A stretch of 64,000 bases of DNA from NCBI GenBank assembly GCA_039545335.1, contig BCIN01000003.1, positions 1,116,001 through 1,180,000 of the forward strand, given 5' to 3'. The notes under the pieces are model-generated. The model did not search any database. It was not told the origin of the DNA and saw only the letters and a program-made list of their open reading frames with translations. The position numbers were made by a program, and so were the translations under genes. This DNA is from Kondoa subrosea (lineage: Eukaryota). Of the stretch, positions 18,517-44,313 are shown piece by piece. Position 1 is the stretch's first letter; each line of letters begins with the position of its first letter.

Positions 18517-19015
18517 ATGTCTAACTCCAAACAAATCATCTCAACAGATCAAGCCTGCTCGAATCCACTCTTCTCTCAAGCTACCAGAGCTGGTGGGATC
18601 ATCTATACATCTGGAAATATTGGGCAGCAAGCAGATGGAAGTCAAACGAAAGGAACAGTAGGCGATAGAACAGTGAGTTCCTACTAAGTGCTGTGCGCAT
18701 CTGAGCTTATGAAACAGTAAGACGAAAGCTTTGGATAATATTGATGCCATCCTCAAGGCAGCAGGCTCAAGTTTGGAACATGCTTTGAAAGTGACTGTCT
18801 TTGTGAGTAGTGCGCCTTTCCATTACGCTTGAGCTGATGGGGGATTCAAGCTGAGCGATTACTCTCTTTATGACGAGATGAATAAGGCTTATGCAGCAAG
18901 AATGCCCAAGCCAATGCCTTCCCGCAGCTGTATCGGGGTGAAAGCACTGCCGATGGGCACAGATGTCGAGATTGAGTGCACTGCTGTTGTACCGGATAGC
19001 GCCAGCAAGCTGTAG
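18517..19015 (+). CDS. RidA/YjgF/YER057c/UK114 family enamine/imine deaminase (absent from ORF track)
   Basis: Spliced MSNSKQIISTDQACSNPLFSQATRAGGIIYTSGNIG...ALDNIDAILKAAGSSLEHALKVTVFLSDY...MPSRSCIGVKALPMGTDVEIEC; the catalytic Arg motif is present. Confidence 0.92.
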
Positions 19016-19368
19016 ATATTGGTCAGCCGGTCTTCGTCTTGACTTTCAAAGGCAAGTGTTGATCACTTTTGGCAGCCTCTGTTAAATAAAAGATATACTG
19101 TATTGCTCTCTATCTCACTGCTTCATTTCTTCACGTCCATCTATCGAAATGAATATATCTTATCACTTTGTCCGATCCCTCATTCTTGATTACTCTTTTA
19201 CTGCTTTCTTTCAGCGCCATTACGTGCACTTTATCTGCAGCACGAAGTAGTTGCAGAAGTGAATTTGCATCAATACAATACATTGTCCATCTGAATCTGA
19301 CCCAAGGTAGCTTTTGTGGTTTTTGATCTCATTCGTAATTCCTTCCTGTCGTAATCAACCCTTCCAAA

Positions 19369-21550: not shown

Positions 21551-24248
21551 TTAGGACATACCTCGGACATCAACCTCAACATCATCTTTCTTCTCATACC
21601 CATCTTCAGAACCGGGCGACGCAGAAGTAGTCTTTTTCAGATTCTTTCCAGCAGGTGCGTCCCAAATTTCGTCATCGAACATCCCCCGACGTCCGTCCCG
21701 GCCTAGGTAGCGGTTGGTTACTGGCTTGTCTGCATATTCAGCAGGGTAGACTGGGTCTTTCCATCTGTTGTGAAGGAAAATTAGCAATTGTATCACCTCG
21801 AGCGGATGAGACGCACATGAGACTAAGCGTTAAATGGACAGCGAAGGAGATAACTGTAGAGAGGATCCATCCCGTGCTGTACATGCGGATGAAAGGCAGA
21901 CCAATGGCGCTCTTGTTGTACTGCAAATACCACATGATAAGTCAAAAGCACAAATTGAAGACCGCTAGACATACATTACCCGCCAGACCTGGGAAGACTA
22001 TGCCAACAGCACAACACCATGACACAATAGCTTTCCAATTGAAACCTTTCTTGTACCAATAAAGTCCTCCTTCTCCAGCTGTAGGATCGCACAGCAATCA
22101 GTTTCTTCACTCGTACCGAACTGCAATTATTGGAACTCACGAGTATATAGCGACGGTGTATGTAGGTTTTGACGACGAAGTACATAGTAGTCAGCATACA
22201 TCTACGAAGAAGAAAAAGAAGACAGTCAACAAACGGACAGATAAGCGTAGATGTAGGACGTACAACACCACTGATGGATCCCATAAGGACTGTATAGCTT
22301 CCAAGGAAAACGATAAATTGACTAGCGCTTGACAAAAACTAATGGACGGCTTGATTAGCATTGATCGAAATTTCTTTGCATGTGCTCGAAAGCTTACTTT
22401 CCATGGAACAATAGCAAGACCCAAAACGAAGCTAGATGACTATCTAAACGAAGTATAAAGCCGATGAGAGCGACATACATGATGATCTGACCGCGGACAA
22501 TGTTGATCCATCGCGGGAATAGACCAGTTATGTCGGCACCAAATGGAACGCTGAAGTGCACATCAGCGTTATACATAGAAGAGATAAGAAAACAAACGAA
22601 TTGTTTGCAAGACTTGTCAGAATAGTAGCACCACTGTAGGTAATGGCGATGAAGAAGACAGCTGTACGAGCGCCAGCATTCCAGTTGTTGTTGAGAACAG
22701 TATGTAGCTGATCCCAGAGAGACCACTGTGCCTTGCCACCATATGCTACTTGAAGAGCAGCAGCCGTAGACATAGAGAAGAAATAGACCAAGACTTTCGT
22801 GACTAGGAAAAATGGTTAGACATTGCTTGCTGTTTAAATCAAAGACATACCGAAAAGAGAAACACCCTGTGGCCATCCTCCTGCATGTGTTGTTTTGGCA
22901 TAGCGAGTAAGATCAGGCTGATTGACGATCAAAGTTGACACTCCTATATAATATGGATCAGTAATGTCTTAGGTCTCATGTTCTTGCAACATACCTCCCA
23001 TACAGACATTTATGCCCTTAAGCCAACCCCAAGCAAGGTCTTCGGAGGAGAGAGTATTAGGTGGAAACGATTTAAAACCACCAGCACGAGTAATAGCCCA
23101 AACAGCGAAAGCGATCGAGACTGGTGTGAGTAGGAAAGCTTTCTGTGAAGAATGACCTTGAGCATTTGTATAGCGAGTCATGTTGCACTTACGATGCTGA
23201 ACACGAGTCTCAAGTGTCGAGGGTGTACGAAATACAAGGGTAGAATTGCAAAGTAAAGGACGATGAAGCCAACAAAGTTCTGAGAGGTGATGCCAGCTGA
23301 AAGCGGAAAGGGTGCCAGGTTTTCGAAAGAAGAGCCGAAAACGCATCGCAAAGCAACCTAGAAGGAAGATTTTAGAGAATGTCTTCATCGATATCGTCAA
23401 AACTCACAGCAAACAAACAGCCAGCATAGTATGCAAGTACACCTTGCCAACTATGGCATATTGAGAATGAGAATAAGAAGCAAACGATAATGTAATGCTT
23501 ACACGATTGCACAGACTGCGCGAATTCCGACAAAAACTGATCGTAACTTCAGTGAGAGTATTCCAGGGAAGATGAAATACTCACAGAACGCTCCACGTAG
23601 ACCAAACATTGATCTAGCTACTGCTGGATATCCCAATCCGTAGGTTGCACCTGGATATGCTCCCAGCACTGGCCAACTCCTTAGTAAGCACTAGATCGAA
23701 ACTTATATCTGTCTCAATACGTACCCATAGCTGCTCCACTGAGAGCGGACCCAATTACTGTAATACCCATAGCGTGCGAAAAAGGTATGCCAATAGCAAT
23801 AATCGCTGAACCGGAAGACCATCTGGGATGTAATTGAGCAATGGATGCTTCCGTAAGCGGCATCGACTTACCCATTCGCATTCTGAAGATAGGCGTTCGT
23901 CAGCTAATGCATACCACTCGCAGATGGCAACGAACGAAAATGGAACCAAACCAAAGAGAACAGTAGTTAAAAGTGTTCCAAGTACGGTGCTCGTCAGGCG
24001 TTGGATCGAGATCTGATTAAAGACATATTTGAGCGACAGCAGTCATTTGGAAGGCGCAAATCTACCATGATTGCTGTAGACGGAACGGATGTGACCTTTG
24101 TCGCCGGGAACTGAATGAATATGTTTTCAGCGTATGCCCAATCAGGAAAAAATTGCAGATGCTTACCTTCAAGCATTGATACGAAGTTCTCTTTGCTGGT
24201 GAACCCAGTCTTGAACTTGGAAAGTCCATCGCTGATCTTGCCAAACAT
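21551..24248 (-). CDS. NCS1 nucleobase:cation symporter (Fur4/Dal4-like uracil/allantoin permease)
   Basis: DLDPTPDEHRTWN, YPGATYGLGYP, VNQPDLTRYA, NSVPFGADITGLFPRWINIVRGQII, LAIVPWK, FIVFLGSYTVLMGSISG, YWYKKGFNWKA; many TM segments. Confidence 0.92.
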
Positions 24249-24882
24249 TGCGAGGGAAAAATGGAGTGGTAGAGAAGATACAGATCTGGTGAGGAAGTAG
24301 GGAATGGGAAGAGAGCAGCAACCGAAAGCATATACAATAGATAGAGATAAGGATTTTACCGCAGGCTCAAACCGGGAAGGATGCGTCTGGGGTATGTCTC
24401 ACTCGGTCCATGCATTATCGGAGCGATAAGGCCAGCTCTTTGAGTCTTACGCCGTCGCCGATGACTGGCCAGATCTGCGCTAGGCATGAGAAAGGGAAAG
24501 CAGTACTACAAGATTGTACAGTAGTCGAAGGAGATCTTCAATAATAGTTTCCAGCATCGATCGGATCCTCTAAAGTGTCTGCTGCGGTGAGCCGAGATAT
24601 CGCACAATGAAATCCAAAGCCAATCTGCTGCTTCCCGCCGAAACATATAGATTCTCAAAGTATCAGACGACCGACAACACAAGAGCTGTTGCAGTTTGGG
24701 GAGCGAAGATTCTCTGAAATGCCTGTCCAATACGTGAATTACGATGTAGTCCTAGACGCGTTGAATAGCAGCTGAGTAGAAAGAACCGTAGGCTGAACAG
24801 ACTGCCTCCCGAAACCCGTATACCCCAGACTTGCTGATAAGCGTCTTTCTTCAGCAGTACACGACAGTAAAAGCACGTAGAT

Positions 24883-26910
24883 ATGGCAACCAGCGATCCA
24901 AGATTGACTACGCATGCACCAAGAGTGAGTCAAAATTTGTATTCAATTGTTTCCATTGTTTTGCTTGAACAATCGCTTTCACAGGACTTGGTAGGCTATG
25001 GCAAGAACAGGCCTGATCCTCGTTGGCCAAATGGAGCTAAGATAGCTGTGAATTTTGGTAGGTTCCATCGCTGTGCGCAAACAACAAGCTAATTTGTTGC
25101 CTCAAATAAAGTCATCAAGTGAGTCTTCCTGCTATGCTTCTTCTTCTATTTTTCCTCTTCTGCTCATTTCACAGTAATCTGTGCTTATCTTCTGCCTGAA
25201 AACATGCCTTCTTTCTCTTCCTGAGGGAGACTGCCATTTACCATGTGCAGAACTTCATTCTGATGCTATTCGCTCTCTTTCTGCAGCTTCGAGGAAGGAG
25301 GTGAACACAGTATCGAATCCGGAGACCCACATGCCGAGTACAATCTTCGTGAGTTCAAACGATGTTTAAGTTCGATATGCGTACTGACTGGGATTTATCG
25401 CCGGCTGCAGAAGGTAGAATTGACCCTCCATATTGTTCTACATATACTGAGAGGGACTTGCAGAGACTGGCCCGAAACAGCCCTTTGTAGGAGAACGAGA
25501 CATACCTATGGAAAGTCAGTTCGAGTTCGGCAGCCGAGTTGGAGTAAGCTTTACTTTCCTGACTATCTGTTTTGTCTGATATTTTTCTGCAGATGTGGCG
25601 CCTTCTTCGTCTATTCGAAAAGCACAGCATGAAGGTCACTATATACGCTGTTGCTCAAGCGCTCGAAAAGAACATGCAGGTCTCGGAAGCTTGTGATGAT
25701 GCAGGTCACGAAATCGCTTCTCATGTCAGCTTCGAGAGCTTGTCAACGTGCACTCTGCTTGATTATACTTAAGTTTGACTTTTCATAGGCAATGCGTTGG
25801 ATAAACTACAGAGACATGCCAGCAGAGCAAGAAGAGGACCTGATTCGTCAAGCAGTCGCAAGCTTCCAGAAGACGTCAAAGACCGGTAAAGCTCCTGTAG
25901 GCTGGTGAGCTCGCGTACACTGTAGCCTTGAGGAAACTCCTTGACATTTCGAGCAGGTATGTAGGCCGACCATCTCCTAGATCACGAGCCCTACAGCAAA
26001 AGGGACGTTGCTATAGCTAGTCGCACAATGCCTCTGGCTGACTTTACATGTACAGGTCTACAAAGATCTTGGTCTCGAACTTTTATACAACTCAGACAGT
26101 AAGTCTGGCTTTAAATTCTGGCAAATAGTCGCTAAGCCTCTCAATCTATCTACAGATTACGCGTAAGATGTCCTACTTGTTCTGATGCAGGCTCTGACAA
26201 CATAGCAAAAGAGATGAATTACCGTACTACATCCCAGATCCATGGCTAGAACCGGGAGAAGAAGATAAAGGACTCATGATTGTACCATGTGAGAAACCTT
26301 TCCTTACTGTTTCGTACTATAGACACTTACACCGGTTGCCTAGATTCATATGATTGCAGTATGTCTCTGAAGTCGCTATATCGAGCTCTCCTTACTCAGT
26401 GATGGTCTCTAGACGATTTCAAGGTATGCCCTCAACTTTCCGGCCTCTATGCATTCCTTTACTGACTTCTATTTTCCAAAGTTTTACATCGCGCCAGGTA
26501 AGTTTCATATGACTCGTTGCTGTCGCGAGCTTATCCGTTTTTCAGGTTTCGGCAGCGCTTGGGCATTTGGAGAACATATTCAAAACGCTTTCGACACATT
26601 GTATGAAGAAGGGACTGAAGGACAACCTGGCTTCGTAAGTTGCCCCGACCGCTTGTCTTTGCATGCTGTGCTGAAACTTTCTGCAGCTCACAGTTGCTGT
26701 ACATGCCCGCTATATTGCCAGACCAGGTCGCTTCCCAGCACTCAAGAAGTTTGTGGAATATATCGTAAGGTCTCGAAGGTGTCTTTGATCTGTCTAGGCT
26801 GAAAAGCGACTTTGCAGTCATGCAAGGAAGGTGTTTGGGTAGCTACGCGCGAAGAGATTGCCAGACATTGGGCTAAAGAGTACCCGTACCAAGCCAAAGC
26901 AGTCGTGTAG
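24883..26910 (+). CDS. PuuE-type (allantoinase-like) polysaccharide-deacetylase-fold hydrolase; at least five microexons
   Basis: Spliced PRDLVGYGKNRPDPRWPNGAKIAVNFVINFEEGGE...ESQFEFGSRVGMWRLLRLF...GHEIASHAMRWINY...PVGWYVGRPS...NYADELPYY...VPYSYDCNDFKF...FDTLYEEG. The E/H/W signature replaces the D/H/H metal triad. Confidence 0.88.
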
Positions 26911-26952
26911 CCGCATGATAACAGAAGTTGCACAGAATATATATTGTTTTAC

Positions 26953-27950
26953 TCAGGCTAATTTTGCACCATCAACTTCACCCAAGTCTTAGCATCATTA
27001 CAGTTAATGGTCGGATTAGGTACTCACCAAGAATATCGGCTCCGCTCGTGTAGCTAGACTCATCTGATGCGAAGAAAACAGCAACCATAGCAACTTCTTC
27101 CGGGCGTCCTCCCCTTGCCATAGGTATTCCGGCATGCATTGAATCAATTTTCTGCGCCATATTCAGCAGGGTAGGTGAAATCCTCGCACGTTTACTGTAC
27201 CTCTTGTGTGAAACCTTGAATATTCGGTACGTCCATTACTCCCTGGTATAGAGATAAGATAACATATATGCGACAAGGGACAGGAGACACATACCGGCGA
27301 TATAGAGTTACATTTTATACCGTGACATGCGTATTCCGATGCCACGTTTTTGGTCAAGCCTAGAAGACAGAATTTGGAAGACGAATAGAGACTTGCGCCG
27401 GGAGATCCCTTGTGTGCCGCTGTAGAGGTCATGTTGATAATTGAGCCTCTAGTCCCTGCTTTCAGGAAGATTCGAATGGCCATCTGCATAAGAAGGAAGG
27501 GTCCTCGAATGCTGTATGTGAAGTTCAGACTTCATGTAAGTGTACAATTGCGCAGTGTACTCACTTCACTGCCATTATATCGTCAAACTCCGCAAGACTC
27601 TTTTCATGAAACGGACGCAAGTAACCGCCCAAAGCTGCGTTGTTGATAAGGCAGTCGAGATGGTCGAATCTGGTAGTTAAGAACTGTTCTAGCTGCATGA
27701 TGCTTTCTGGAGAGCTTTGATCTAGTTCAACCCAATGAAGGTTATTCACTGCACTATCCGATTGATCTGGAAGCTTGATGTCCGCAGCGACCACAATAGC
27801 GCCATGTTTGAGAAAGGTAGACACGAGACTCTCGCCGATACCTTGAATCGGAAGTCATTCGTTATCAGAGAGAACAAGGGAAGCAGGAAACGAACGGCCA
27901 GAAGCGCCCGTGATCAAGCAGATCTTCCCTTCCAGTCGCTGAGCAGTCAT
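26953..27950 (-). CDS. Classical short-chain dehydrogenase/reductase (SDR)
   Basis: MTAQRLEGKICLITGASG.GIG, LDCLINNAA, GSIINMTS, YSSSK, NSISP, IPMARGGRPEEVA...SYTSGADILVDG. Confidence 0.93.
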
Positions 27951-28185
27951 AAGAGCACAAAGGTGTGCAAGCGGACGCAGAAAGAGTGCCGACTTCAAAC
28001 GGCTTGTCGAATTATCAAGTTCCGACGGATCGAAGCATTCTGCCTTGATTCAGCAGTAGGAAGATGGAAGTATCGCGGAAGACAAGAAAAGTCCAAAGCA
28101 ATATTCAAATCTCATCGATGAGAACACATCGTTCATGGTCAAAACTAGGTGTCCAACTTTACAATACGACTCATGCAATGTATTT

Positions 28186-30355
28186 TCACCTCGGTACATT
28201 CCGCTGTACTTCTGCAGTTTCAATATCTCCTACAGGCAGCGAGCTGACTACTGCCGTATCCTTCTCATCTACTTCACTACTACTTTCCGCCGGACTTTCA
28301 GCTTTCGGTGTCGCAACTATCGATCTTGGTTTCTTTAAGTCCACATTCTCGATGAATAACGATAGAACAAAGCTGGCGGCCATAAGAGGGAGGAAGAAGA
28401 TGAATATATAGCGAAGAGCGGTTTGATATGCATCGAAAACGCCTCGGACTTGATAATCTGGAAGACCAGCTGGCAGGTCTAAAGAAGCTTCTTGCATGAT
28501 TTGTTCTCGAAGTCCAGCTGGCAGATCTCTTGGAAGCTTGCCACTGACTACTGTGTTGAGAATCGCGTTGCCAATAGCGAGTCCAAAAGAGCCACCGAAT
28601 GTTCGCAAGAAGTTCCGACCACCTTATCGAGAGATCGTCAGTAGTGTGAGCAGATAAAGGAGTTCAGCCTACCTGTAATGACTGCCCGGTCCTGAGATGG
28701 AGCAGTAGCTTGGGCGGCTACTAGACCAGATTGCGAAACACAACCAAATCCAAGACCCTGCAGCAAGAGGATGACAATAATAGGGCCTAGAGGAGTCGTC
28801 CGTTTGAACATGATTTCCAGGCCAGAACCAAGAGTCCAGAGTGTGCAGCCGAGCAAGATAATTGATTTCACTCGACCCGTTCGGGAAGCTGTATCAAATA
28901 ATCAGCGCAAACTCGGCTTACATTGTGTCTATACTCACTGACGATGCCCATAAGAGCAGAGATGATAGATTGAGGAATGAGGAGAGCCAGCATTATTGCC
29001 GCCGCTGTCACTGGATCGAGCCGTCGAAGCGAAATGAAGTAGATCGGTAGCCAGTAGATGTTTGCGTAATAAACAGCTCCTTGTAAGAAGAACGTTGCAA
29101 GAAGTAAGCCAGGAGTGTGATACTACAGTCGGATGAAGGTCAGCTCAGTCTCATTGCCGATTCAGCACATACTGTAAATAATCGTACTGTGGTAGAAGTC
29201 AGCTGGAATGTCAAACAATGAATGAGAACAACTCACATGGTAGAACTGGTAACGCTGCGAATTTCCATTCTACAAGAATGAAAGCCACAGCCAAAGCGAT
29301 TCCAATGAGAAGGGTCGACAAAATAATGGGCGACGACCAAGCATATTCAGCACCTCCAGAAGAGATCGCGAAAAGAATGAGGACATTTGCAGCCAGAGAA
29401 AGGATGGTTCCGCCATAGTCGACTTTCAGTAATTTACTCTTCATGTTTCCACCAACTGGCTTGAGAGGTAGAGTTCGCCATATCACGAGAGTACATATCT
29501 ATATGAGCGACAAATAAGACGAAGCCGGCACAAGCGAAGTTTTTGACCTACAGCTGTACAAGGAACTGGGATCCAGAAAACAGCTCGCCAAGTATAGTAT
29601 TGCGTTATAAGAGCACCTAAGAAAGGACCTATAGAACACAGTTTCTGTCAGTCGTTGCCATAATGCATATTGCTGATCATTACCTGCGGTATTGCCTAGC
29701 GCTACTGAAACTCCGATAAAGCCTTGCCATTTGCCTCTCTCCTGGAGCGTTGTTATATCGGACATAATCACCATGGCCTGCAGATAGCTTCTCGTCAGAT
29801 CGAATACCGGAAAGTAGTATGCGCTCACGAGATTATTGATACCTCCTCCTCCTATTCCAGCAATAGCTCTGAAAGTGAAGAGCTGTATTGGCGTTTGAGC
29901 AAATGCGCAAGCCAGGTCTCCGATTGCAAAGATCCCCAAAGCAACAAGCAACAGGGTTTTCCTGCCCCAGATATCCGAGAAGCGAGCATAGACCAGTTGA
30001 CAGCTGGTGTTTGCGATGAGGTAAGCTGTGCCAATCCATGACTATGCATCGCATCAGCTGAAGCACGAAACATTTTGAAAGTAGCTTACTATACTACGAC
30101 CCGCTTGTAGATCCTCTGCTATCTGAGGCTGGGCTAATGCGACAGAGGTTGCATCGAGGAAACTGATACAATCGCATCAAGGAGTGATCCAATACTAAAC
30201 CAGAAACTAACTTACCTGAGAAAGAGTGCGAAAGCGAGACCTAGAAATACGACTACTCTTTTTTTATTGCTGAAGATTGCCGTCTGATCTTCTAAGCTGA
30301 TCACTCTTTTGAGTTTAGGCGAAGGAATTGTTGCATCAGCTATGGTATTCTGCAT
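28186..30355 (-). CDS. MFS transporter (DHA2/EmrB-like drug:H+ antiporter type)
   Basis: LEDQTAIF start, RFSDIWGRKTLLL, FRAIAGIGGGG, IMSDITTLQERGKWQG, KVDYGGTILSL, RNFLRTFGGSFGLA. Confidence 0.92.
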
Positions 30356-30569
30356 GCTTTCGCGAAACAAGTGCTACGGCGAAGTTTAGCGGAATCAAGC
30401 ACAAAAGATTTGTGCTGCAGAGAGAACAGGCCCAGGACAAAATAGAAGATGGCAGAGCTTAGGAAAACATAGAGACAAGCAGATTTCATATCGTTATCTT
30501 GTGAAGAGCCGAAACTTCCTTCCTTGAAGCCGACTGCCAAACGGTTCGGCGAGCCAACGGTTCTTTGTA

Positions 30570-33562
30570 ATGGATGCAAGATCTGATGAGATACAGCTGC
30601 GGCCGCAGAAGAAAGCAAGAGTAGCAGCTCCTAGAGGTGGTGCAGCGTGTACAAGGTGTCATCAGAGAAAAGCAAGATGCGAGTGAGCCGAATGCTTATC
30701 TTTTTCAAAGCCTAAAGCTGAATAGGGACTAATTGACAGTCGCTCAAGTCCTGATAATGCATGTAGAAGCTGTGAATTGGCAAATGTCGAATGTTTAACG
30801 CTTCCGAAGCAACCTAGGAAAAAACGGACACCTTCTGTAGCACCGCAGTCTTCTTCTGCTTCTCAGCCTCCTCAGCAACCTGTCAATCCTGTCAATGTCA
30901 ATCTTCATTCCTCCTGGCTTCCTCCGCCGAATGCATTTGACCTAGGAATTGGTACCTCCAACAACTCGCCTCAACAGCAAAGCAATGAGAGAAGAGCTTA
31001 TGAATTACCAGACTTGCCAGAAGACGATCCCTCTGATACTGTTTCTGCTTCCGGTATTGATCAAAGTGTGATGTCGAGCGGTGGAGCTCATCTCGATGAC
31101 AAACGATTGAGCAACGCTGCTCGGAGCGTGGCTTTCCTCAGTCTAAACGCATCAGCAGATGCTTCTTTCCTTGTGAGTGTTCACTCTCCGGCAAAGTGTC
31201 TTATATCAATTTACCGATAGGGTGCCTCATCTGGCTTCTCCTGGACTGAATTGGTCGTATCTGGGTTGTTGGCAGACAGCAAGCTAGACAGCGCAAGTTG
31301 GAGCTTCGACACAGATGGACAGCCCGCTGCGCTTTCGAGTTCTTTCTTGGAAGATGTCTCTGCTGAAGTCGCAAGTTCAATATTCGATATTTGGTACGCT
31401 GGCAATTCACAAATCCCTGAATGATGCTCATGAAAAAGCTTTGTATAGCTACAAACACATTCAGCCTCGCTATCCTTTCGTCGACTGGCTTCGCATGCAT
31501 AGGTGGTTCAATGAGCGTATCAGCATCATGAGAGCTGCTAGCCAGCCAGGAGCTAGTCCGGGGACAAAAGCAGGTATCCAAGACCTCTTCATCTCCGTCA
31601 ACTTCTTTTGATCGTGTAATCCTCCGTCTATAGCTGCCCTATTCCTATGGCTTTTCTTCGCACTCGGAACAAGCTTGTCTAGACGTTCTCCTTTGCCGGG
31701 TCTAGCTAGTTCTTCAAGTTATTTCGCAGAAGCGCTGAAACATCTTGATGCTGTAGGTAAGCAAAAGATCTCGCATGCCTGATTGATGCATTCTCAAGCT
31801 CTTGATAATCAGCTGGAATGCATAATCTGGTTGGCTTACAAGGTTGGTGTATTTATTCTCTTTCTTTTAAATTTTTTTAACGTTGGTTTAGCTTTGCTAC
31901 TTCTTTCCATGTATGCTCTGCAACGACCAGCGGGGCCTAGCGCTTGGTTTCTTTCTGGTTCTGCGATGCGACTTGCCATAGCTATGGGTCTGCATCGCAA
32001 GCTATCACCTGAACGCGAACGTGCTGTAGGTCTGGCTTTACAATGACCTTGGGATCTGCTCAAGACGCATCCGGTAGATTGGCTTCTATGCTTCTGAGAT
32101 GCGCAAAAGGTGCTTCTGGTCGGCTTATGTGGTGAGTTTGAGAGTAAGATCTATGTAAAATAGCTCATATCGTTCTTTTCCCAGATCGACCGAATGGTAT
32201 GTCTGGTAAGATGTGTGAAGAAGATGCTCAAGCATGTTTGCATCGCCAGGTAGCACTTACATTAGGTCGACCGTTTGGCATTAGGTAGGTGATCAGTTTC
32301 CTTCCTTTTCGAGCTATACTTACTACTTGCGTAGCGACAGCGCCATTGATGCCTCATTACCGATGAACGTGGTAAACACGTCTCTTATTCAGCTAACCAA
32401 CCCTGCTCACTCGCCCAAAGAATTGCGTGCAGATAGATTGGCCAACCGAAACTTCGCGAAGCGCTACCAGCATGACTTCCGCTCTACATCACATCAAGTT
32501 GTGGGTCTCAAGAAACGGATGAATGATATATACTAAATGATGGTTTAGAAAGCGCATCGACTCTAAAGTGATTGAAGCTTTCTATCGTGTCGATACGGAC
32601 GAACAGAATTTAGCTCAAGCAGTCTCTTTGTTGAATGATATCGATTTTTGGGCGGCAGGTATCCCACTTGAGGCGTCAACAGAGCAGGTATGTCCCTATA
32701 TGTGATTCATTGTATGACCGCTAATCTTTCTTGTTTATTTACAGGCTAAATTGCTACCTTGCTGTACTCGTGACTGTGAGCTGTTCTCCTTGGGCCAAGT
32801 ATTGAACTGAGACTTGTTTAGGGTTTTTGATGAAAGGAGAGCGTAGGCTCTAGCATATCTTCCGTATCCGCAAGTTTGATCTGTTCGGCGATGTTACAGA
32901 AACTAAGCAGCATCTCCTTCGACCATTGACAACTGTGGTCAAAGATCGACCTTACTGGCTTTCTCTTTGCGCACAATCTGCATCAGCCACGCTTCAAGCA
33001 CAAAGAAGGATACATCAAGCTCGTCCTTTCTCCCCTACGATCTCTGCGTTGCATAGGCAAGTACTCATAGCTTGTAAACATCTAATGCTGATACGAAAGC
33101 ATAGTACATTCCTATCTGGCATCACATTGTTACATTGTGTGAAAATCTTTCCTTCAGCTTTACCGGCTCAAGACATCCACAAAGCTATTCGAGCTACCAG
33201 CAGTACGTATGATACACTCATTCCTCACAAGATCTCACAGTCTTGCAGATATTCTGTTTAGCTACGTGCAAGAATACTCTCAAGTCGCTCAAACCTTTCA
33301 CGACACTTTTGAAGCCCTGGCGGAATTATGTCTCAGTCCAGCTCCAGCACCTTCAAATCATGATCCATGGAGTGCCAACCTGGCAGATCTAGCTTCCAAC
33401 ATGCCCGCAGGAACAGAAATTGGCGCATTCTTGCAATCTCTAGGCTGCGATCCGGCATTCAATAGAATGATCGATGATACTCATCAAGTCCCAGCTTTCT
33501 CTCTTCCGCCAAACGATGATACATTACCTATCAGCGTACCCTTTGCCTTACCAGGATTTTAG
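30570..33562 (+). CDS. Zn(II)2Cys6 fungal transcription factor (Ppr1/UaY-like features)
   Basis: ACTRCHQRKARCD...ACRSCELANVEC; VAFLSLNASADASFLGASSGFSW; AWFLSGSAMRLAIAMGLHR; MRKRCFWSAY; LTLGRPFGI. Confidence 0.9.
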
Positions 33563-33687
33563 GATGCAAAAGTGATGCAAGGGGAAAACTGCCTGTGTTC
33601 CGTAAATGCTGCACTGAATGTACATTTCTTGCCTATACGGATATGATCCATTGCAAACATTGACTAGCTCCGAGTCCACCCAGGGCG

Positions 33688-36600
33688 TCAAAGCTGCGAA
33701 GCACCGAAGTCCTCCGGCGTAGCTATCTCGTCCGTTGCCGGAACGGTGTAGCCAAAAGCGTTATCCTCAAAAGCTAATACCAATTGTCAGTCGGCATCTG
33801 AAAGGTGATTAGCCAAAGCAACGCACGACCATAAAATGTTGGGCGATCTGAGCACACTCATCTAATTCAGTGCTTGTCAATTTCATCGACTACAGAGTAC
33901 ACTCACGATATCGGAACCAAGGCTGCTTTGACTTGAACTTTTCTACTAGATCAGGATTGGATGTGTAATAGCGACCGAAAGCGACCGCTTCGGCCTCTCT
34001 TGAAGTAATCGTTGACAGAGTGTTGTCCCAGTTGTAGCCTCCCGCCGCGATTAATGGAACTGGTGAAGCTGCGAAGCGATAAGGCGACAAAGATGCTGTT
34101 TCGTCAAGACCTTCTAGCTTCTCTTGTTCGTCCTTAAATTCGTCAAAGCGAGGCTCAATCGCATGTCTAGCCGAAAATTGAGTATAGATGACGACCGCGA
34201 GCAAAGTCACTAACATATACGCTATGCGCATAGTACCAAGCTCTCGACACAAGTGAGTCCATTGCTGTGGTCTTTCCACGCCTCGAGTCTGCCCTATCGT
34301 CAATGCGATGAAGTAAAGAAGAGCAACTTGGCTCACATCATTGAACAGACCGAAGGGAGCTATCCGCATACCAACTCGGTCGTTTCCAACAGCTTTGCAC
34401 ATAGCTTGTACGACGTCTAACGTGAATCGACATCGTCTAAAGAGATCGCCGCCATAATTGTCCTCCCTCAAGTTGATATTCGAGTGCAAGCTGTGTGAAG
34501 AAGCATGAAGTCACTCTACGCAAATCAAAGGCTCGACTCACAATTGATCAGGTAGATACCCGTTTCCAGCGTGCAGCTCCACGCCGTCAAAGCCTGTTAC
34601 AGATCGAAATGTTCAATGAAATACCTGTATATGGCAAATGACTAACCGGCTCGTCTAGCATTGGCAGCCGCTATTCCGAAGTCTTTGACGACCGTCTCGA
34701 TATCTTCTATAGTCATTTCTCTTGGTGTTTCAAAAGGTAGACCAGTCTTGCGGTCTGTTCCAGCTTGCGGTACAGCTGAAGCCGAAACCGGTTGACTTCC
34801 AAGAGTTGCTGTCGAATTGTTTCTACCCCTGTGCCATACTGGAAGCGGAATGTGTTAAAGTGAAATAGCGAGCAGTAGATCGACTTACATTGACAGACAA
34901 ACACTCCACCTTTCGCATGTACGGCATCTACAACTCGCTTCCATCCTGCTATCTGCTCTTCGGTAAATATTCCAGCTAGGGCAAAGTATGAGCCAGAACA
35001 GTATACGAAGAGCGACTCTGACTGACGAACGCCTGGCGTGCTTGCGGCCAGAACGGTGACTGGTACAGCTTCCGATATAAGAAGACCGCCAGGAGTTGCT
35101 CGCGCGGTATAGTATTCTATCATGAGATAATTCGGAACCCAGGTCTTTGGGTGTAACAAAGATGGATTAGCCTGTAAAGGATATTAGCAATTACAGTGCA
35201 GAAGCGCAAAATTGGCATACGCGGTTTCTCGTCATAGGTGCAAGCACGATGCGATGTTTCAGGGACAAAGCACCAAATTGGGTTGGACTCCAGAGCGTAG
35301 GTACATCCGAAGAAGCGGAACTGAATAGATCGCCAACAACTTTTGCCATAGACAGAAGTTTTCGATCGTGGTAACGAGCGGATACTAGTGACAGCCCAAT
35401 CGGTAGACCATTCTCTGCTTTCAGACCAGGACTTGTAACCTAATCAGCCTGGCACAAAGTAATCCTTAAATCATGGCCTACACATTAATGACTGGAACAT
35501 GGAGAGCTGTCCAGCAGCTATTGAAAGACTATAAGACTGTATTAGCTTTTTCTTCATCATCATATATGTCAGGACTTACAGCATCTCCAGTTCTTGCAAG
35601 ACCTTTGGGCGCTTCTCCGACAGTACTTGGCGTTAAGATGAGATCATATCCTGGTGTAACAGAAGTAAGTTCAGCAGACAGACTGAATTAGAAAAGAAGC
35701 ACACCAGACGCAAATTTATCCCAAACCGGTCTCATGCGCGCGATAGCATCATAAGCTTCTAACTGATCTGCCCGACTGATCTTGTGCACGTTCTCAACAT
35801 GACCAATTAAAGAGGAGTCAAGTTTATCGCGAGCGAAATAGTAATCTCCCACTATGCAAAGGAGAGAATCAGACAACGGTGAGATCGGTACGGCGAAGAA
35901 GACTCTTGACTTACAGAAAGCAGCTCTTCCTTCTCCGTGCATCATGTTGCGAGCATATGAGCTCAAATGTTCGAAACCTACAGGTGTATCGACATCTTCC
36001 ACAAATGCGCCAGCTTGATCGAGAAGTTGTACTGCTTGAGCCAGCACTGATTTAGTACCAGATTGCGCTTTGGGCCACACATGAGTTCGACAGATAGCGA
36101 TACGAGCGCCTTTTAGAGTGAAAGAAGAGGGTGCAGGTTGATCATCAGTGATTTTGAATAGATCGGCTAAAAGTTCGAGATCCTCTATAGAGCGAGCATA
36201 AAAGCCAAGCGTATCCAAGCTGACAGAATAGATCTTGAGACCTTCGCGAGAAACGCTACCCCATGTCGGCTTGAACGCCCAAACGCCTGAGATCAGATTA
36301 GAAATGACAAAGAAAGGCAGCAGAAGATTGACTTGCCATTGAAAGACCCCGGACGAATGACTGATCCACCGGTTTGCGTGCCTACACGATGAAGTATGAG
36401 CTTTGCGGGTCGTAGTGTCACAAAGACCCAAAACAAACCCAGCGCAACATGGCATTGACAATCGCCCACAGCAGCGCCCTGTTGAACACATAAGTACGAA
36501 TGCAAGCCTTTTGGCTGAGAGCCTCACTGAACCGGAAGATGAACCTCCAGGCGTTCTCTCAGCGTCATGTGCATTGCTTGTCTTGGTTCCGTTGACCGTT

Positions 36601-37044
36601 GCTGCAAATTCAGTTGTAGTAGTTTTGCCAAAGATCAAAGCTCCAGCACTTCTCAGTACTTTGACACAGTCTGCGTCCAAGTTGGCCTGATGATCTTTGT
36701 AAATGGGTGAATTGTGTTGCGTGGGAAGATCTACGACCAACGAAACATCAGCAGCTCATTAGATCAACAAGAGACAGCTAAGAGCACACACCATATGTAT
36801 TGATTACGTCTTTTACTCCCACCATTAAGCCTGCTAAAGGACCTTTGTCGGGCAGTGCATCAATTCTTCTAGCTTCTCGTAGAACATGTTCAGGATCCAA
36901 GAATGCCCATGCCTTGACACTCTCATCTCTTGCAGTATAGCGATCCAAGCAGGATTGTGCTATTTCTTCGACTGTCGCATGACCGTTTCGAACAAGAGCA
37001 ATAACTTCTGGTCCGGATAGGCGAGCATAATCTCGGCTGGTCAT
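33688..37044 (-). CDS. Fused amidase-signature enzyme (N-terminal, about 37044-35330) and Old Yellow Enzyme/NADH:flavin oxidoreductase (C-terminal, about 35300-33688)
   Basis: Amidase: GPLAGLMVGVKD, GKTTTTEFA, TPGGSSSGS, GTQTGGSVIRPGSFNG, GLPIGLSLVS. OYE: LKHRIVLAPMTRNR, YYTARATPGGLLISEA, GWKRVVDAVHAKG, GFDGVELHAGNGYLIDQ, AFGRYYTSNPDLV. One exon (35431-35221) reads through both domains with no stop. Confidence 0.85.
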
Positions 37045-37356: not shown

Positions 37357-39597
37357 TCAGCAGTCACAGTCTATAATCCAGATTAGTGAAGGAAAGAGTG
37401 TATTGGGAAGAGGAGCCTGACCTTTCTTTCCTTTGGGAAGTTTGTGAAATCGATCGTTGCTCAAAGCAAGACCCAGATCGAGACCGAGACCATGCTTGCC
37501 AGGGTGAGACAATAGGTGATGACCTCGATGTTCAGAGAGGTTGAGTCCAACATGAGCATTGAGGCTTCTAGAAGGGACTTTGACAGCTGAACAGATCACT
37601 TCATAAGGTAGGCCAACGTATGAAGATTGATTACGCACCTCCACAAGCGACAGCAAGTCCACCTAGGCTGACTTTGGGCAGCTGTACTTTGAGACCTGAC
37701 CAGAAAGTAAGCAAATAGGATTAGCGTCATGCATTCAAGGAGAAGCAAAGGGTTGACCCACCTTTCTTGGCGCAAAGACCGATAAGAACACTGCCATCCA
37801 ATTTACCTCTGACATCGAGCAGGCCTTGAAGCTTTATGCCTACAATCACTCTCAGCAAAGAGATTGGACATCATGGCTGCGAGAAACGTACCAGCTCTTA
37901 CGCAAAGGTTGAGGAATGCATTGAGATCCAAAGAAGCGTTGACTCCCAAGAGACCATGGAAATTGATACCTTATAAAGCAATATAATCAGGTAAGAAGAT
38001 AATCAACATCAAAACGTCGTACCAGCTCTGATGCACAGCTTGACGAAGGCATCAACATCTAAAATGGCTCCAGCTTTGAGGAATGCTTGAACATCAACAC
38101 CTAAAAAGCAAAAATGAGAAAAGCGCAAATGTATATATATATATAGACAGCACACACCAGCCGAGACACAGAATCCAATGAAAGCATCCAAGTCGAATTT
38201 GCCATTAAGTCCAACGAAAGCCTTCAGGTCGACAAGGCCTGAGAAAGCATGATTAAACAAATTACATCGGAAACAAGGACCGGAGAAGATCTACCTGCTT
38301 TGATACAAAGGCCAATGAAAACATCAAGATCCAGTTGGCCACTGACATTAAGCAGAGTCTTGAAGTCGATACCTGAAGATCAATGAAGTCAGTACCATAT
38401 CAAGATAAGAGTAGCGGTGCAAGACGGGCAACCTACCGGCTTTGATGCAAAGATCAATGAAAGCGTTCAGGTCTAAAACTCCACCTATGCCGATGATTGT
38501 ACTGAGATCCAGTCCAACTATAGTAGATGAAGAAACAGCAAATTAGGTAAGTGAGAAAAATTAGCCATCAATTGGTGTGACATACCGCCGCCTGATAGAT
38601 CTGTGCCTAACCCAACGCCCAACGGAGGAAGACCCAAACCTGTTTGCAGGCAAGAAATACATGTTAAGCAAAAGAATTCAGATTTAGACACAAAAAAGGT
38701 ACCGAGATGGCCATTGCCTTGATCCTTTCCGCCTAATCCTACTCCTAAGCCTAATCCTAAGCCAAGACCAGCACCTGATCAAATCGAATCGAATCGCACA
38801 TGAGAATTATCACAATTTAGATTCGCTAGTAGCAGACTTACCTGAATGAGGTCCAGTGTTTTGAGGCCCATGTCCCAATATCGGTAAGCCGATACCTGAA
38901 CAGATGAAAACTCGTGTTAATACATAATTGGTTCCCGTATTTTGATTTCAATGACTTACCAATGCCGATTCCACCGCTTGGCAAGTGACCTTGTCCTGGC
39001 CCATGTGGCTTATTATCACCAGCGCAAGGAGTCTTGGTAGGTGGAGCAGGTGAAGAGGAGCATGCCTTCCTGTTGATTTCGCTCACTGCTGGAGAGATCT
39101 TGGAAACGATTTCATGAGTTGTGTAGAATTCTTTGCCGTAGATATCTGTCGCTGAAAGAGGCTGATCAGGCGTGTCTATGAGGAATGAGTATCATTGAGT
39201 GTTCCAAAAGCAGGCGATCGCACTTACAGCATCGTCCAGTAGCCGGATTTTTTTGACAGCAAGTGCAGTCAACTTGGACTTGATCTGCAGTAGATATCAG
39301 CAAGCACTGCTTGCGTTGATATGATCACTCACTAGCGACTGAAGAAGGCGCAAATTCGTTCGAATACCAGTCACCAGAAGCTTCGCAGGAAGCGCGGCAT
39401 GCGAGTCGCCAGCTTTGCTTGAATTGATCCAAAGTTTGGCTCTTGTTGTACTGTTGAAGCTGTGTCAGCCATGCTACACATACTGATGACCGACGACATT
39501 GACTTACAACGATAGTAGCCTTTTCGCAAGCTGGGATTGCTCCAGTCGCAAGAGTATAAGAAGCCAGGAAAGGTAAAAGAAGGAAGGCAGAGAGCAT
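37357..39597 (-). CDS. Secreted protein A: Cys-rich N-terminal domain, Gly-rich linker and six 26-27 aa hydrophobic repeats (3' end approximate)
   Basis: Signal peptide [58 protein letters not shown]; repeats such as GIDFKTLLNVSGQLDLDVFIGLCIKA, each on its own exon. Confidence 0.75.
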
Positions 39598-39769
39598 ATT
39601 GGTAAAAGAATGTGTGTTTGAATGAGTGTGAAAAATGAGAGTATTGATGATGAAGAAGAAGAGCGAGACGAAAAAGAAAAAGCTGACTGCTTTATACAAT
39701 TCTGACCAGCGTCCGAGAGCCACCTCTTTAGTCCATCGATTCTGGCCAATAGAAGCCGCACTGACGCTT

Positions 39770-39805
39770 TAGTCAAAGCTCTAGTCAAAGCTCTTGTCCA
39801 AGCTC
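39770..39805. repeat. Three-copy 12-bp tandem repeat (TAGTCAAAGCTC) upstream of secreted protein A
   Basis: tagtcaaagctc tagtcaaagctc ttgtccaagctc. Confidence 0.75.
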
Positions 39806-40314
39806 GATTCCAGACATCGCACACAGGACTGCTCTGAGCTCCTGTACATATCTCCGCAACCTCCAAAAGGCAAGAGAGGATTTGAGCTTGGATCTGACAG
39901 AACTGCTCTGTGCGATTCTTTCACTCGGGGAGCGGGTACACAAAGGGGCGAATTGCGCGAGGCAGAGTATCGATCAGACATAGCAGAAAGAGTTGCAGAG
40001 AATTGACGTGACGAGTAAGTGAATCGCAATTGTACGAATAACGAATTGAGTTGAATTGAGCCAATGAGGATGACGATTACTGGATCAGACACATTTGTGT
40101 CGTTGTAGATCTCAGTAATAGTTTGGAGCTACTGGACACATGCAGAGATTCGCATCGCGGGGCAAAGAAAGATGTGAAGAACTTTAGAGTCAAAGTGTAT
40201 ACTATCTAAATGACTGTGTTTGCATTGGAGACTCTATGAAAGTCTGAATGTCCGCAGTTACTCCCGCTCGCAGAGACAGAAAACAGAACACTATAAGAAA
40301 AGCCCAATCAGTTC

Positions 40315-42754
40315 TCAAGCTTTGACTATTGCAAGAAAGACGCATCAGTAATGGAGTATGCAGAAGAGAGATGAAGACTGACCCTTCTTGCTCCTGGAAA
40401 CCTTGTGGAATCGGTTGGTTGTAGAATGGAAGCCATTCGCACTTCGCAAGTTGCCTTTCGCGGCACCTTTTGCATGCAAATTCAAGCCAGGGAAGAGGAA
40501 GCTGAGACCTGTGATGATTGATACGTGATTCTAAGCAAGCATGCTCATCTCAAGGAGAAAGAAACATACCTGGAGGAGCTTCGCTGCCTGAATCGCTGCC
40601 TGAGTCACTACCTGCTCCACTGTTGCTGCTTCCTCCTCCTCCAATATTAAGAGAGCCACCTAGAGAACCTCCCAGTATTCCAGTAAGCATATTAATAATG
40701 TTTGCGCCTAAACATAATTCAGAAAATGGTCCATTGTAAAGAAAAATTACGTACCACTTTTGACTCCGATGTCCATGAGACCTTTGAGATCGAGCTTGCT
40801 TGCAGCAGTAACAAGGCCATTCAAGTCAAGAAGCCCATCTGCACCCAGAACGCCGTTCAGATCAATACCTATTGAAGTTGAATTTCAGCAAAAGAGCAAA
40901 ATAGCGAGAAAAGAAACGAACCGAATGAAGCAGCCATATCTAGAAGCGCGTTTACATCCAGGAGCCCGTCAGCACCAACTAAGCCATCCAAATTGATGTT
41001 CATGTCTAAAAGTGAGTTGACATTTAAGAGACCATCTGCTCCTAACAGCCCTTTCAGGTCTACGCCTGTTGAGCATTAGCAGTCAGTAAAGAATGGATCA
41101 TGAAGTATAAGCAGCAGAAGCTTACCCATACCGGCAGCCATATCAAGAATGGAGTCAACATTCAACTTGCCCTCTCCATTCATCAAGCCATTCAATTGAA
41201 GCCCTAAACATGTTATTAGCGAAGAGGACAATGTATTTGAGCATCTGTGCACACCAGCCTTCGATCCAAGTTCAAGTAAAGTGTTCAAATTGAGCATTCC
41301 TCCAGAACTCAGAAGGCCATCCATTTTGGTGTCAAGTAAGCCGTTGATATTTAGCTTCCCGTCCCCACTGAGTAGTCCTTTCAGATCCAAACCTGTTCAG
41401 ATGGATGAAGAAGTCGGAAATGATTGCAATTAGCAAGTGAAAATCATGTACCAGCTTTCGCAGCGAGATCCATCAACGCCTGAATGTTTACTTTGCCATC
41501 ACCACCAAGCAAGCCCTTGAAGTCGAAATTTCCGTTCATAAGTGCACCTAAATCGAGACCACCAAGAAGTCCTGTAAGAGAAAGTGACATCAGTTCAGTC
41601 GAATGTAACGGAAATGCTGTCGAGGCATGTAACATACCACCTCCTGCCTGTCCACTTGCGCCTGCGCTAGCATCTCCACCCAGATTGAGCTTGGGGAGGT
41701 TCAATCCAAGTCCTAAATGCCACGAGAAAGAAGAGTCGAGTCTTGTCAAGTTGAATGGAAGCGCAGAAAGGAAGACTTACCTCCTTCCCCGCCAATGTTC
41801 ATGAGACCAGAAAGATCCAATCCTGCGTGCGCCAATGGGTAAGCGAAAGAAAATGTAAAAAGTTGAGGAAAATCAATGTACCCAGCTTTCCTCCCAGATT
41901 AGCAAGAGCTCCAAGGTCCAATTTACCATTGGCTCCAATCAGAGCATTGAGATCGATGCCCATCTTGGCGCAAAGATCAAGCAACGCAGAAACGTCTAGT
42001 TTCCCGTTTGCGCCAATCAAAGCTTTCAAATCGATTCCAGCCTTTGCGGCGAGATCTAAGAGAACATCAATGTTTAGTTGCCCATTGGCGCCAAGTAGAC
42101 CCTTCAAATCGATTCCTTTTCTCAAGAGCATTAAGCAAAAAAGCCCGAAATTTGCCGGAAAGGATGACACACCAGCCTTAGCACACATGCCCAAAAGTCC
42201 ATTGATATCTAATTTGCCAGACGTGCCCAAAAGGCCTGAGATATCGAGGCCTGAGCGAAAGTTGTGAGCAGATGTCTAGAAAAAAATAAGACAGCAATGA
42301 AGAAGACATACCTCCTAAGCCTGATAAGTCCAAGCCACCATTTCCATCAATGATTGCTCCGATATTGAGACCAGGGATTTGGATTCCTGCACAAAAAAAG
42401 AAGCAAAAGAAAATGATCAATATTGCTGGTAGATGACAAGCGCAACACAAGACAGCTCACCTCCTCCTGCTTCCCCTTTTCCGCCTAGTCCCAAGCCAAA
42501 GCCAGGCAAATTGAAGCCTATCGAGAGGAAAAACTTCAGATGAGCGAAATAAAACGATCAATTGTTGTGCAGACTTACTTCCGCCCGCTGATCCTGATCC
42601 CGAGCCTGATCCCGAGCCTGATCCTCCGATATTGAAGCCAGGAAGACCTGTTGCATGAGAGATTCTTTCATTTTTGCATGACACATCGACTCGAGACGAT
42701 GACTTACCGATTCCAATGCCTCCTGAGCCCGAGCCTGAGCCTGAGCCAGAGCCT

Positions 42755-42795
<41 letters not shown>

Positions 42796-43409
42796 TGAAC
42801 CTGAACCTGAGCCCGAGCCAGAACCAGAACCAGCAGGTTGAGTAGCAGCAGGGGGACTAGATCCACCAGAGCAAGTTTGACGATCAATTTCCTTGACAGC
42901 AGGAGTGACTTGGCCAACAACATCGTGAGTAGTTTGCACCTCTTTCCCATAGATGTCGGTTTCGGAGAGAGGCTGGTCAGGAGTGTCTGCCCAGAGCGTT
43001 CAGTGTTGTTTGTTCCGCATACATACATGAAACTTACAGCATCGACCGGTAGCAGGATTCTTTTGACAGCAGGTACAGTCCACAACTACTTGGTCTGCAA
43101 GTTCAAGTCAGAAAGAGTTGCGATTCTTTCGATACGAAGACTCACTGGGAGTGGAAGAAGGGGCGAATTCATTGGAGTACCAGTCTCCTTTAGCTTCGCA
43201 TGAGGCACGACAGGCAAGACGCCACGATTGCTTGAATTGCCCGAGAGATTGATCTTGACCATACTGTAAGAAATATGTGAGTATCGATCTCGACAATACG
43301 CTTGGAATTGACTCACAACGACAGTTGCCTTCTCGCAAGCTGGGATATCGCCAGTGGCGACAGTATAGGAAGCCAAGAACGGGAGTAGTAATAAAGAAAT
43401 GACCAGCAT
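40315..43409 (-). CDS. Secreted protein B, paralog of A: Cys-rich domain, (GS)n linker and about ten 26-aa Gly/Leu repeats
   Basis: [60 protein letters not shown]; repeats such as [26 protein letters not shown]; ends ...[14 protein letters not shown]. Confidence 0.78.
42723..42831 (-). repeat. Degenerate 6-bp coding repeat encoding a (Gly-Ser)n linker
   Basis: gagcct/gagcca/gaacca/gaacct units; translation GSGSGS... in ORF 42457..42939. Confidence 0.9.
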
Positions 43410-44313
43410 TTTGAGTTAGTGAGTGAGATAAATGAGAAAAGAAAGGAAAGTAAGTTTGTGAGATGAAGAAAAAGAGAGCAATTAAGAAACTTATACAACC
43501 CCAATGTGGGTCTGAGAACCTTCAAACGATGTCCATCTCCTAGCGGAAACATGTAAAAGAAGCAGCACAGACGCAATTCGTCCAAGCTCAGGCCAAGCTA
43601 ACAGTGAAACTTAGCAACTTGCCCCTATAAGGTATCTGCATATTAGCCGTAGCCTCAAATACTCAAGGCTCGGACTACGGAGAATCGCTTAACGACCCCT
43701 GTTCGGAATAGCAACGCACAGACGAGAAAGTACGGTACAAACGTCAGGAGAAAGAATCTGGCAATTAAGCACACGAGCAGACAAGTAGAAGAAGGCATTC
43801 TTCAAGGCAGGACAAACAACAGCGTGGGCTTGAAAACCCTGTGCAGCTGGATCGCCTAGCATGTGGTAGGATTCATTGATTCTTGCACTTCTATTCCCTG
43901 CATGACGGTCGCCGATACTTGAGCTCGAAGCTTCCTTCCCTTGAACAGGTTTTCCAACGACATTTTCAATCGAGGTTCAGATTGGGAAATATGGTGAACT
44001 ATGGCCAGATATCGGTTTTGATTACTGAATTTATACTGAATGCAGTCTGGTAGCATTGTCAGGCATTGACCGTTGATTGTTTGGCTGAGATCTCGCAATT
44101 TCAAGCTAAACGTGTGCTTATGTAATATCTTTATGCCTGCTTTTGCAATCGAATGGCTCTACAAAACTCTCGACACACAGTATGTATTGCATTTGAGAGA
44201 GCTTCAGACATGCAACAAACAAAATTGACAAATCCTTCCCTTTCATTACTGAGTCGATGCTCTCCGAAGCCCAGCTCTTTCCCCTCTTCCTCACTGAGAT
44301 TCACTTATCGAGC

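Follow-up and report, generated by a model that had tools for sequence, protein, structure and literature searches.

Gene content of the locus

We analysed a 64,000-nucleotide stretch of the Kondoa subrosea genome (positions 1,116,001 to 1,180,000 of contig BCIN01000003.1, assembly GCA_039545335.1), hereafter the window, for a putative catabolic gene cluster at positions 21551–37044. This segment is filled by six intron-rich genes with no further gene in between. A preliminary description had listed six contiguous genes in this order and orientation, uninterrupted by any housekeeping gene, and the sequence, Pfam matches and spliced models bear this out. Homologue-guided spliced alignment provided the gene models. 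All six are real genes with intact frames and introns of 47–64 nt as a rule, and the reading frame running from the amidase into the old yellow enzyme (OYE) is unbroken. Two pairs are divergent, namely the NCS1 permease (−) with the PuuE-type hydrolase (+), and the major facilitator superfamily (MFS) transporter (−) with the Zn2Cys6 factor (+); a classical short-chain dehydrogenase/reductase (SDR) lies between them. The features are:

21551–24248 (−): NCS1/Fur-type permease, 19 exons, 582 aa, spliced model
24249–24882 (unstranded): divergent NCS1/PuuE promoter with five HGATAR sites, three TCGGC half-sites and two TCTG-N10-CCGA elements (24578–24595, 24624–24641); full ascomycete dyad absent
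24883–26910 (+): predicted PuuE-type cyclic amide/imide hydrolase, 18 exons including micro-exons, 327-aa model
26003–26055 (+): intron of the hydrolase gene with a GG donor (GGACGT...CAG), 53 nt
26953–27950 (−): classical SDR, 6 exons, ~245 aa, Pfam adh_short; accessory, not conserved with the cluster
28186–30355 (−): MFS transporter of the 14-helix drug:H+ efflux (TRI12-like) type, 10 exons
30570–33562 (+): Zn2Cys6/Fungal_trans transcription factor, Pfam and partial spliced model
33688–35298 (−): OYE domain, C-terminal half of the fusion, HxxNxY motif intact
35299–37044 (−): malonamidase-E2-like amidase domain, N-terminal half of the fusion, Lys-Ser-Ser triad intact

The amidase and OYE domains share one frame of 819 aa on the minus strand (33688–37044) and join within one exon through a linker of few residues. 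The last conserved residue of the amidase lies at ~35308 and the first of the OYE at 35295; the interval has no stop codon, no start codon and no space for a promoter. Read from the DNA alone, the two are predicted to form a single fusion protein. In searches that were incomplete, the OYE family was found in none of 52 longer amidase matches, and an amidase match in none of 150 OYE representatives. Of these 52 amidase relatives, 26 are gene models merged with an SDR and five with NCS1; a PuuE-type domain and Zn2Cys6 factors each occur in one such merger. P0467, an OYE piece of the window type, and P0323, an amidase piece 75% identical to that of the window, are both listed on one contig of 127,584 nt, which suggests the same amidase/OYE linkage in a relative, the junction itself lying out of view. 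Separately, a Fusarium-specific amidase paralogue is annotated as fused to an unrelated SDR in 26 records (P0019–P0044), a further case of an amidase paired with a reductase.

The hydrolase frame that matches all homologues requires the 53-nt intron to start with GG and not GT. Removing it yields residues present in all homologues; an alternative GT four bases downstream leads to a frameshift or, with a later AG, to a two-residue deletion. The GG donor may stem from an error in the assembly, or else be a rare splice site or a lesion. For the transcription factor, the six Cys residues are readable across intron 1, and Pfam together with the gene model confirmed the Zn2Cys6 class assigned to it in the preliminary description.

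Recurrence of the gene set in other fungi

Scanning metagenomes with the Fusarium PuuE protein P0054, we kept the best 80 of 273 loci. Seven of the 22 fungal loci of at least 10 kb hold amidase, MFS transporter, PuuE, factor, NCS1 and OYE together, in varying order. At least two partners were found in 17 of the 22, and this synteny check revealed co-clustered gene groups in ascomycetes; most of the incomplete loci stop at a contig edge. The remaining five (L028, L030, L040, L065, L066) carry paralogous PuuEs, L066 having been left out of the PuuE tree and classed by its match to L065. These loci are not independent, as six of the seven complete ones have amidases 81–94% identical, with L026 at 63–64%, and L016 duplicates L034. 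Recurrence of the gene set elsewhere among fungi rules out a chance grouping of the six genes. In six of seven named genomes (Pleurostoma, Aspergillus californicus, Boeremia, Whalleya, Niveomyces and Scytalidium) amidase and hydrolase are 1–5 accession or locus numbers apart; in the seventh, Xylogone, they are far apart and the pair involves a non-cluster paralogue. A. nidulans AN9327 is likewise a cluster-type hydrolase.

The five groups PuuE, amidase, NCS1, MFS and Zn2Cys6 are linked in the window as they are in the ascomycete cluster. The window amidase is 52–58% identical to the ascomycete cluster amidases and falls within one fungal clade (100 SH-aLRT), near its base with Phenoliferia, its nearest relative being the 75%-identical piece P0323. 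The NCS1 permease is 35–38% identical to its ascomycete cluster counterparts, with which it shares a C-terminal motif and forms a clade against the L040 paralogue (support 100/99, in a small set of 12 rows). For the MFS transporter identity is 42–45%, and the factor matches six cluster factors at E 1e-36 to 1e-41, as against 7e-9 or weaker for three unrelated factors. Both resemble the cluster copies far more than they do three unrelated copies of each, few paralogues having been sampled for either orthology. Shared intron positions, one each in amidase (the first intron, common to the window and six of the seven loci) and MFS and no exact one in the other four genes, lend weak support. The hydrolase groups with Agaricales proteins (100/99; 65–66% identity), outside the ascomycete paralogues, and a single clade of basidiomycete and cluster-type PuuEs was neither recovered nor rejected, at p=0.076 in the approximately unbiased (AU) test. 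Tandem pairs of PuuE-type genes with consecutive accession numbers occur in Agaricales (Agrocybe, Galerina; P0161/P0444 and P0448/P0455).

The OYE has a different history. It is 40–41% identical to the ascomycete cluster OYEs, its nearest full-length relative is a Kwoniella protein (50%), and a joint clade with the cluster OYEs was rejected (AU p=0.0058; 26 rows, simple model), the same split appearing in a quick tree of 78 rows. Because the window OYE thus falls in a clade other than that of the ascomycete cluster OYE, we conclude from the trees that this enzyme is a case of two separate recruitments to the cluster. A homologue of the window SDR was found in none of the 80 loci, and its PDB search matched generic SDRs only. 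The SDR adjoining the Fusarium amidase paralogue is only 27–31% identical to that of the window, and this pairing was not counted as support for SDR membership.

Five of the seven functions are therefore assignable to gene groups clustered across Pezizomycotina, with only OYE and SDR lineage-specific, and the core genes are, to judge from these relationships, common to basidiomycetes and ascomycetes. This does not agree with the earlier proposal of an independently assembled basidiomycete pathway. The window genes look native and appear to belong to the same groups as the ascomycete cluster genes, which fits a cluster inherited from an ancestor as well as an old pathway that became clustered more than once, paralogues being sampled too thinly to choose between the two. 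Horizontal transfer from ascomycetes is not favoured, with the hydrolase grouping with Agaricales and the amidase lying outside the resolved ascomycete groups. No bacterial counterpart of the cluster was seen in 80 loci of bacterial amidase relatives, of which four had a distant CE4-fold neighbour (25–27% identity), two an SDR and none NCS1 or OYE. The closest bacterial amidase in the tree, from Microvirga (L081:2255-7314), shares its locus with another amidase and a couple of distant CE4-fold genes, possibly an analogous hydrolase pair.

CGG dyads are sites of Zn2Cys6 factors, and GATA sites bind AreA-type nitrogen regulators. In 61 ascomycete promoters from 17 loci, divergent promoters being counted twice, CGG-N11-CCG occurred in 51 (7.6 expected) and CGG-N10-CCG in 32 (7.0 expected). 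Counting the strict site once per position in 12 loci gave 106 in 36.3 kb upstream (2.9/kb), compared with 25 in 87.9 kb of coding sequence (0.28/kb) and 19 in 84.6 kb elsewhere (0.22/kb), the last class mixing genes and spacers and hence being no pure promoter control. The dyad lies upstream of amidase in 13/14 cases, PuuE in 13/15, NCS1 in 10/12, MFS in 10/10, OYE in 8/10 and the factor in 5/11. GATAAG was four to seven times denser upstream (1.49/kb) than in coding sequence (0.20) and elsewhere (0.34). Because the ascomycete promoters share CGG-N11-CCG and GATA sites, they point to one nitrogen-regulated regulon. In the four window regions, which hold no full dyad, TCGGC half-sites number seven (1.7 expected) and HGATAR sites 12 (4.7 expected), and the two TCTG-N10-CCGA variants are present, all patterns chosen after viewing the data; regulation in this organism may resemble that in ascomycetes.

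Several loci differ in composition. At L044:797-3422 an HbpS-like gene (haem-degradation family) comes after a reduced pair of PuuE and amidase, and at L026:2826-3620 an aldo-keto reductase adjoins the OYE, each in one locus only. A second fungal cluster type (L040:5075-14324, L046:831-1439) combines a paralogous PuuE with an xLWE loop and an Asp/Glu/hydantoin racemase, L040 additionally carrying NCS1, a Zn2Cys6 factor and another MFS; this second type would suit a pathway for allantoin or hydantoin better.

The genes flanking the cluster look unrelated to it. To the left lie a gene without Pfam match, which we take to be Ccc1/VIT1-like, and beyond it, 2.5 kb from the NCS1 end, a RidA/YjgF-family gene (Pfam Ribonuc_L-PSP) at 18519–19016 (+). 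Neither was accepted as a cluster member: homologues occur in none of the 80 loci, and the RidA-family gene is for that reason probably not one. On the right, several small, probably secreted Gly/Leu-rich repeat proteins without Pfam matches occupy 37400–43600 (−), with repeat blocks at ~39220–39570 and ~43030–43380 that are 73% identical and a Gly-Ser tract near 42720–42830.

A predicted route for cyclic imides and its alternatives

The hydrolase had been assigned to the PuuE subtype, and PDB searches agreed: the cluster hydrolase P0054 (52% identical to the window model) matched PuuE 3CL6 at E 3e-81 and HpPgdA 3QBU at 6e-12. Its top match was 3S6O, which is 91% identical to the imidase BpIH. 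BpIH opens 3-isobutylglutarimide to the monoamide, and 17 pocket residues are listed for it in the available excerpts of PMC11424739. The window hydrolase retains the Glu-His-Trp triad with His/Arg (E38, H127, W131, H263 and Arg265, BpIH numbering) and is identical at 12 of the 17 pocket positions by script, with Y190 a thirteenth by eye. It differs by F55N, L217Y and M222F, positions at which F/L/M is invariant in 9/9 bacterial PuuEs. N55 is found in 47/73 and F222 in 71/73 cluster-type ascomycete hydrolases, neither being the majority residue in other paralogues. Natively, the window enzyme carries F37/N133/I226, the trio that raised BpIH glutarimide activity fivefold, a weak hint of imide activity.

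The best solved-structure match of the amidase, for both the window fragment and the cluster amidase P0326, is malonamidase E2 (8e-56 for P0326, with FAAH1 at 4e-16), an enzyme named after its substrate, a dicarboxylic monoamide. In the window amidase, the Lys-cisSer-Ser triad with TQTGGS and the Arg158 position are present when the model is set against the alignment. The nearest named relative of the OYE had its best profile score, below cut-off, with N-ethylmaleimide reductase. Maleimides are classic OYE substrates. An imide opener beside a monoamide hydrolase would make a coherent two-step route to ammonium, and this pairing together with maleimides as OYE substrates leads to a cyclic-imide reading.

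From the observed genes, catalytic residues, conserved linkage and shared ascomycete promoter motif we infer the following scheme, in which all substrates, the step order, the roles of MFS and SDR and the regulation in this organism are predictions. The NCS1 permease would import a ring compound and the OYE would reduce an activated C=C bond, either before ring opening or, if the fusion is a guide, on the half-amide left by ring opening. Hydrolysis of the imide to a dicarboxylic monoamide would fall to the PuuE-type enzyme and release of ammonium from that monoamide to the malonamidase-like enzyme, and the MFS transporter may export surplus substrate or spent acid. The Zn2Cys6 factor would induce the genes with a GATA factor gating them by nitrogen status, and the SDR would be a local add-on. 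That the cluster encodes some ring-opening, deamidating, co-regulated pathway is very likely; the import, ring-opening and deamidation logic proposed earlier for a real, co-regulated catabolic cluster is supported. That it is a nitrogen-salvage regulon for a small cyclic imide of the maleimide, succinimide or glutarimide type, comprising uptake, reduction, ring opening and deamidation, is the reading we prefer, if tentatively. The double entry of an OYE into the cluster counts in its favour. A fuller version is doubtful, namely salvage of nitrogen from natural cyclic imides by a cluster kept since the ancestor of Ascomycota and Basidiomycota, with the ene-reductase recruited twice and here fused to the amidase as a bifunctional enzyme. 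Maleimides from chlorophyll or haem breakdown in litter are possible natural imides.

Several observations weigh against the cyclic-imide reading. Six of the seven complete loci are close kin by their amidases, and some clusters have no OYE (L044, and L034, for which both flanks were in view). Helix 3 of the window NCS1 (23450–23430, −) reads W-Q-G-V-L, with Leu where 11/11 other rows have Gln, four residues past the Trp or its equivalent, and the specificity of this permease may have changed. Among the hydrolases, ascomycete members do not keep the F37/N133/I226 trio (69/73 have Y37), the imide activity of BpIH was measured with a synthetic substrate and may reflect a promiscuous allantoinase, and the GG-donor intron may mean that the window copy is damaged. 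Finally, the full dyad is found in none of the four window regions.

Other substrates would account for parts of the same gene set. A non-homologous reductive pyrimidine route, in which OYE reduces uracil, thymine or orotate, the PuuE-type enzyme opens the ring to a ureido acid and the amidase deamidates it, requires the same three chemistries. Fur-type NCS1s carry uracil, FurF and FurG being termed minor uracil transporters in the available excerpts of PMC8306328. Amidase-signature enzymes include ureido hydrolases, and allophanate and biuret hydrolases were among the matches, but far weaker ones than malonamidase E2 (1e-24 to 1e-28 vs 1e-55). The presence of the cluster-type hydrolase AN9327 in A. 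nidulans would suit this route, its neighbour AN9326 being presumably furG; however, uracil is poorly activated as an OYE substrate and an efflux-type MFS is not expected for a nucleobase, and we consider the route unlikely. A module detoxifying an imide- or lactam-containing antibiotic or plant compound (e.g. glutarimide), with nitrogen gain secondary, would explain the drug-efflux/TRI12-like MFS, and OYEs and SDRs are common detoxifying reductases. PuuE-type BpIH also accepts a 3-substituted glutarimide (PMC11424739, excerpts). This idea is decidedly unlikely, given a conserved dedicated NCS1 importer and GATA sites enriched in the promoters, both of which suit feeding better.

We give little credence to the idea that the PuuE-type enzyme serves as allantoinase in another route for allantoin or hydantoin, even with the PuuE catalytic residues retained and NCS1 Fur proteins carrying allantoin (PMC8306328, excerpts). 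Allantoinase PuuE (TIGR03212) is the best NCBIfam match of the two relatives scanned, P0054 and P0161, but their scores of 345.1 and 347.3 lie under the cut-off of 424.6. Bacterial puuE loci (L049, L052) hold genes for allantoicase, ureidoglycolate lyase, racemase or xanthine dehydrogenase, and neither the cluster nor its surroundings showed any of these; the racemase partner accompanies the other fungal paralogue (L040, L046), and no ene-reductase would be required. Because the pocket residues F55, L217 and M222 are replaced and no purine genes lie nearby, this is probably not an allantoin pathway. Scarcely plausible at all is an hxn-like lower branch of nicotinate breakdown that would use the same piperidine-dione intermediates. 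It shares the same four families, and HxnM opens a hydroxyglutarimide (PMC9304392, excerpts), but hydrolase and amidase are of different subfamilies, the hxn oxygenases and C2H2 regulator are not in the cluster, A. nidulans has AN9327 besides hxnM (AN6518), and section 2.4 of PMC8478523 reports no hxn clusters in Basidiomycota. The earlier suggestion of a substrate other than nicotinate is thereby supported.

If the cluster does encode a ring-opening, deamidating pathway, hundreds of fungal proteins now called 'chitin deacetylase 1' and 'glutamyl-tRNA amidotransferase subunit A' would instead be its two hydrolases, serving a single orphan route to nitrogen. A. nidulans, a model fungus, carries the cluster-type hydrolase AN9327, and the predicted operator would make the inducer findable by a reporter screen. 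A catabolic cluster common to both great fungal phyla with repeated enzyme recruitment would be a good case for studying cluster origin and persistence, and the putative imide hydrolase, the half-amidase and the fused amidase-OYE could also serve as biocatalysts for making chiral monoamides.

Comparison with known systems

The literature searched yielded no description of this gene combination and no eukaryotic gene cluster for cyclic-imide catabolism, most subscription journals, including the main Fur-transporter paper, being outside its coverage. PMC4198257 and PMC5371717, considered as earlier descriptions, concern other genes in the parts available. Bacterial cyclic-imide catabolism proceeds by an imidase and then a half-amidase (Blastobacter), and resembles the route proposed here in its chemistry, from imide to monoamide to dicarboxylate and ammonium. 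With bacterial PuuE and BpIH the window hydrolase shares the Glu-His-Trp triad with His263/Arg265 and most BpIH pocket residues; it differs by its three pocket replacements, by two relatives below the TIGR03212 cut-off and by the lack of purine-catabolism neighbours. Bradyrhizobium malonamidase E2 is the best structure match of the cluster amidase and has the same triad and Arg158 position, whereas the window amidase belongs to a fungal clade and is fused to an OYE.

The parallel drawn earlier with the A. nidulans hxn pathway stood at the family level only. HxnT, HxnW, HxnM and HxnN likewise represent OYE, SDR, polysaccharide-deacetylase-fold ring hydrolase and amidase in a nitrogen-regulated cluster, and imide opening followed by half-amide hydrolysis, proposed here, is known in hxn (PMC9304392, PMC8478523, excerpts). 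However, HxnM is HpPgdA-like and HxnN FAAH-like (PMC9304392, excerpts), unlike the PuuE-type hydrolase and the malonamidase-like amidase of the window (436 aa vs 543 aa in HxnN). The window cluster, which is in a basidiomycete, further has a Zn2Cys6 and not a C2H2 regulator, has an NCS1 importer and is without oxygenases. HxnR-like C2H2 and the Pfam families of HxnS/X/V/Y were found in none of the cluster open reading frames (ORFs) or the 102 flanking ORFs of at least 95 aa, apart from an unrelated C2H2 protein at 1610–2413; short exons could escape such a search. On sequence grounds, the cluster does not belong to hxn, although it would work in the manner of the lower part of that pathway; it is a widely shared, apparently undescribed fungal catabolic cluster with a lineage-specific fusion.

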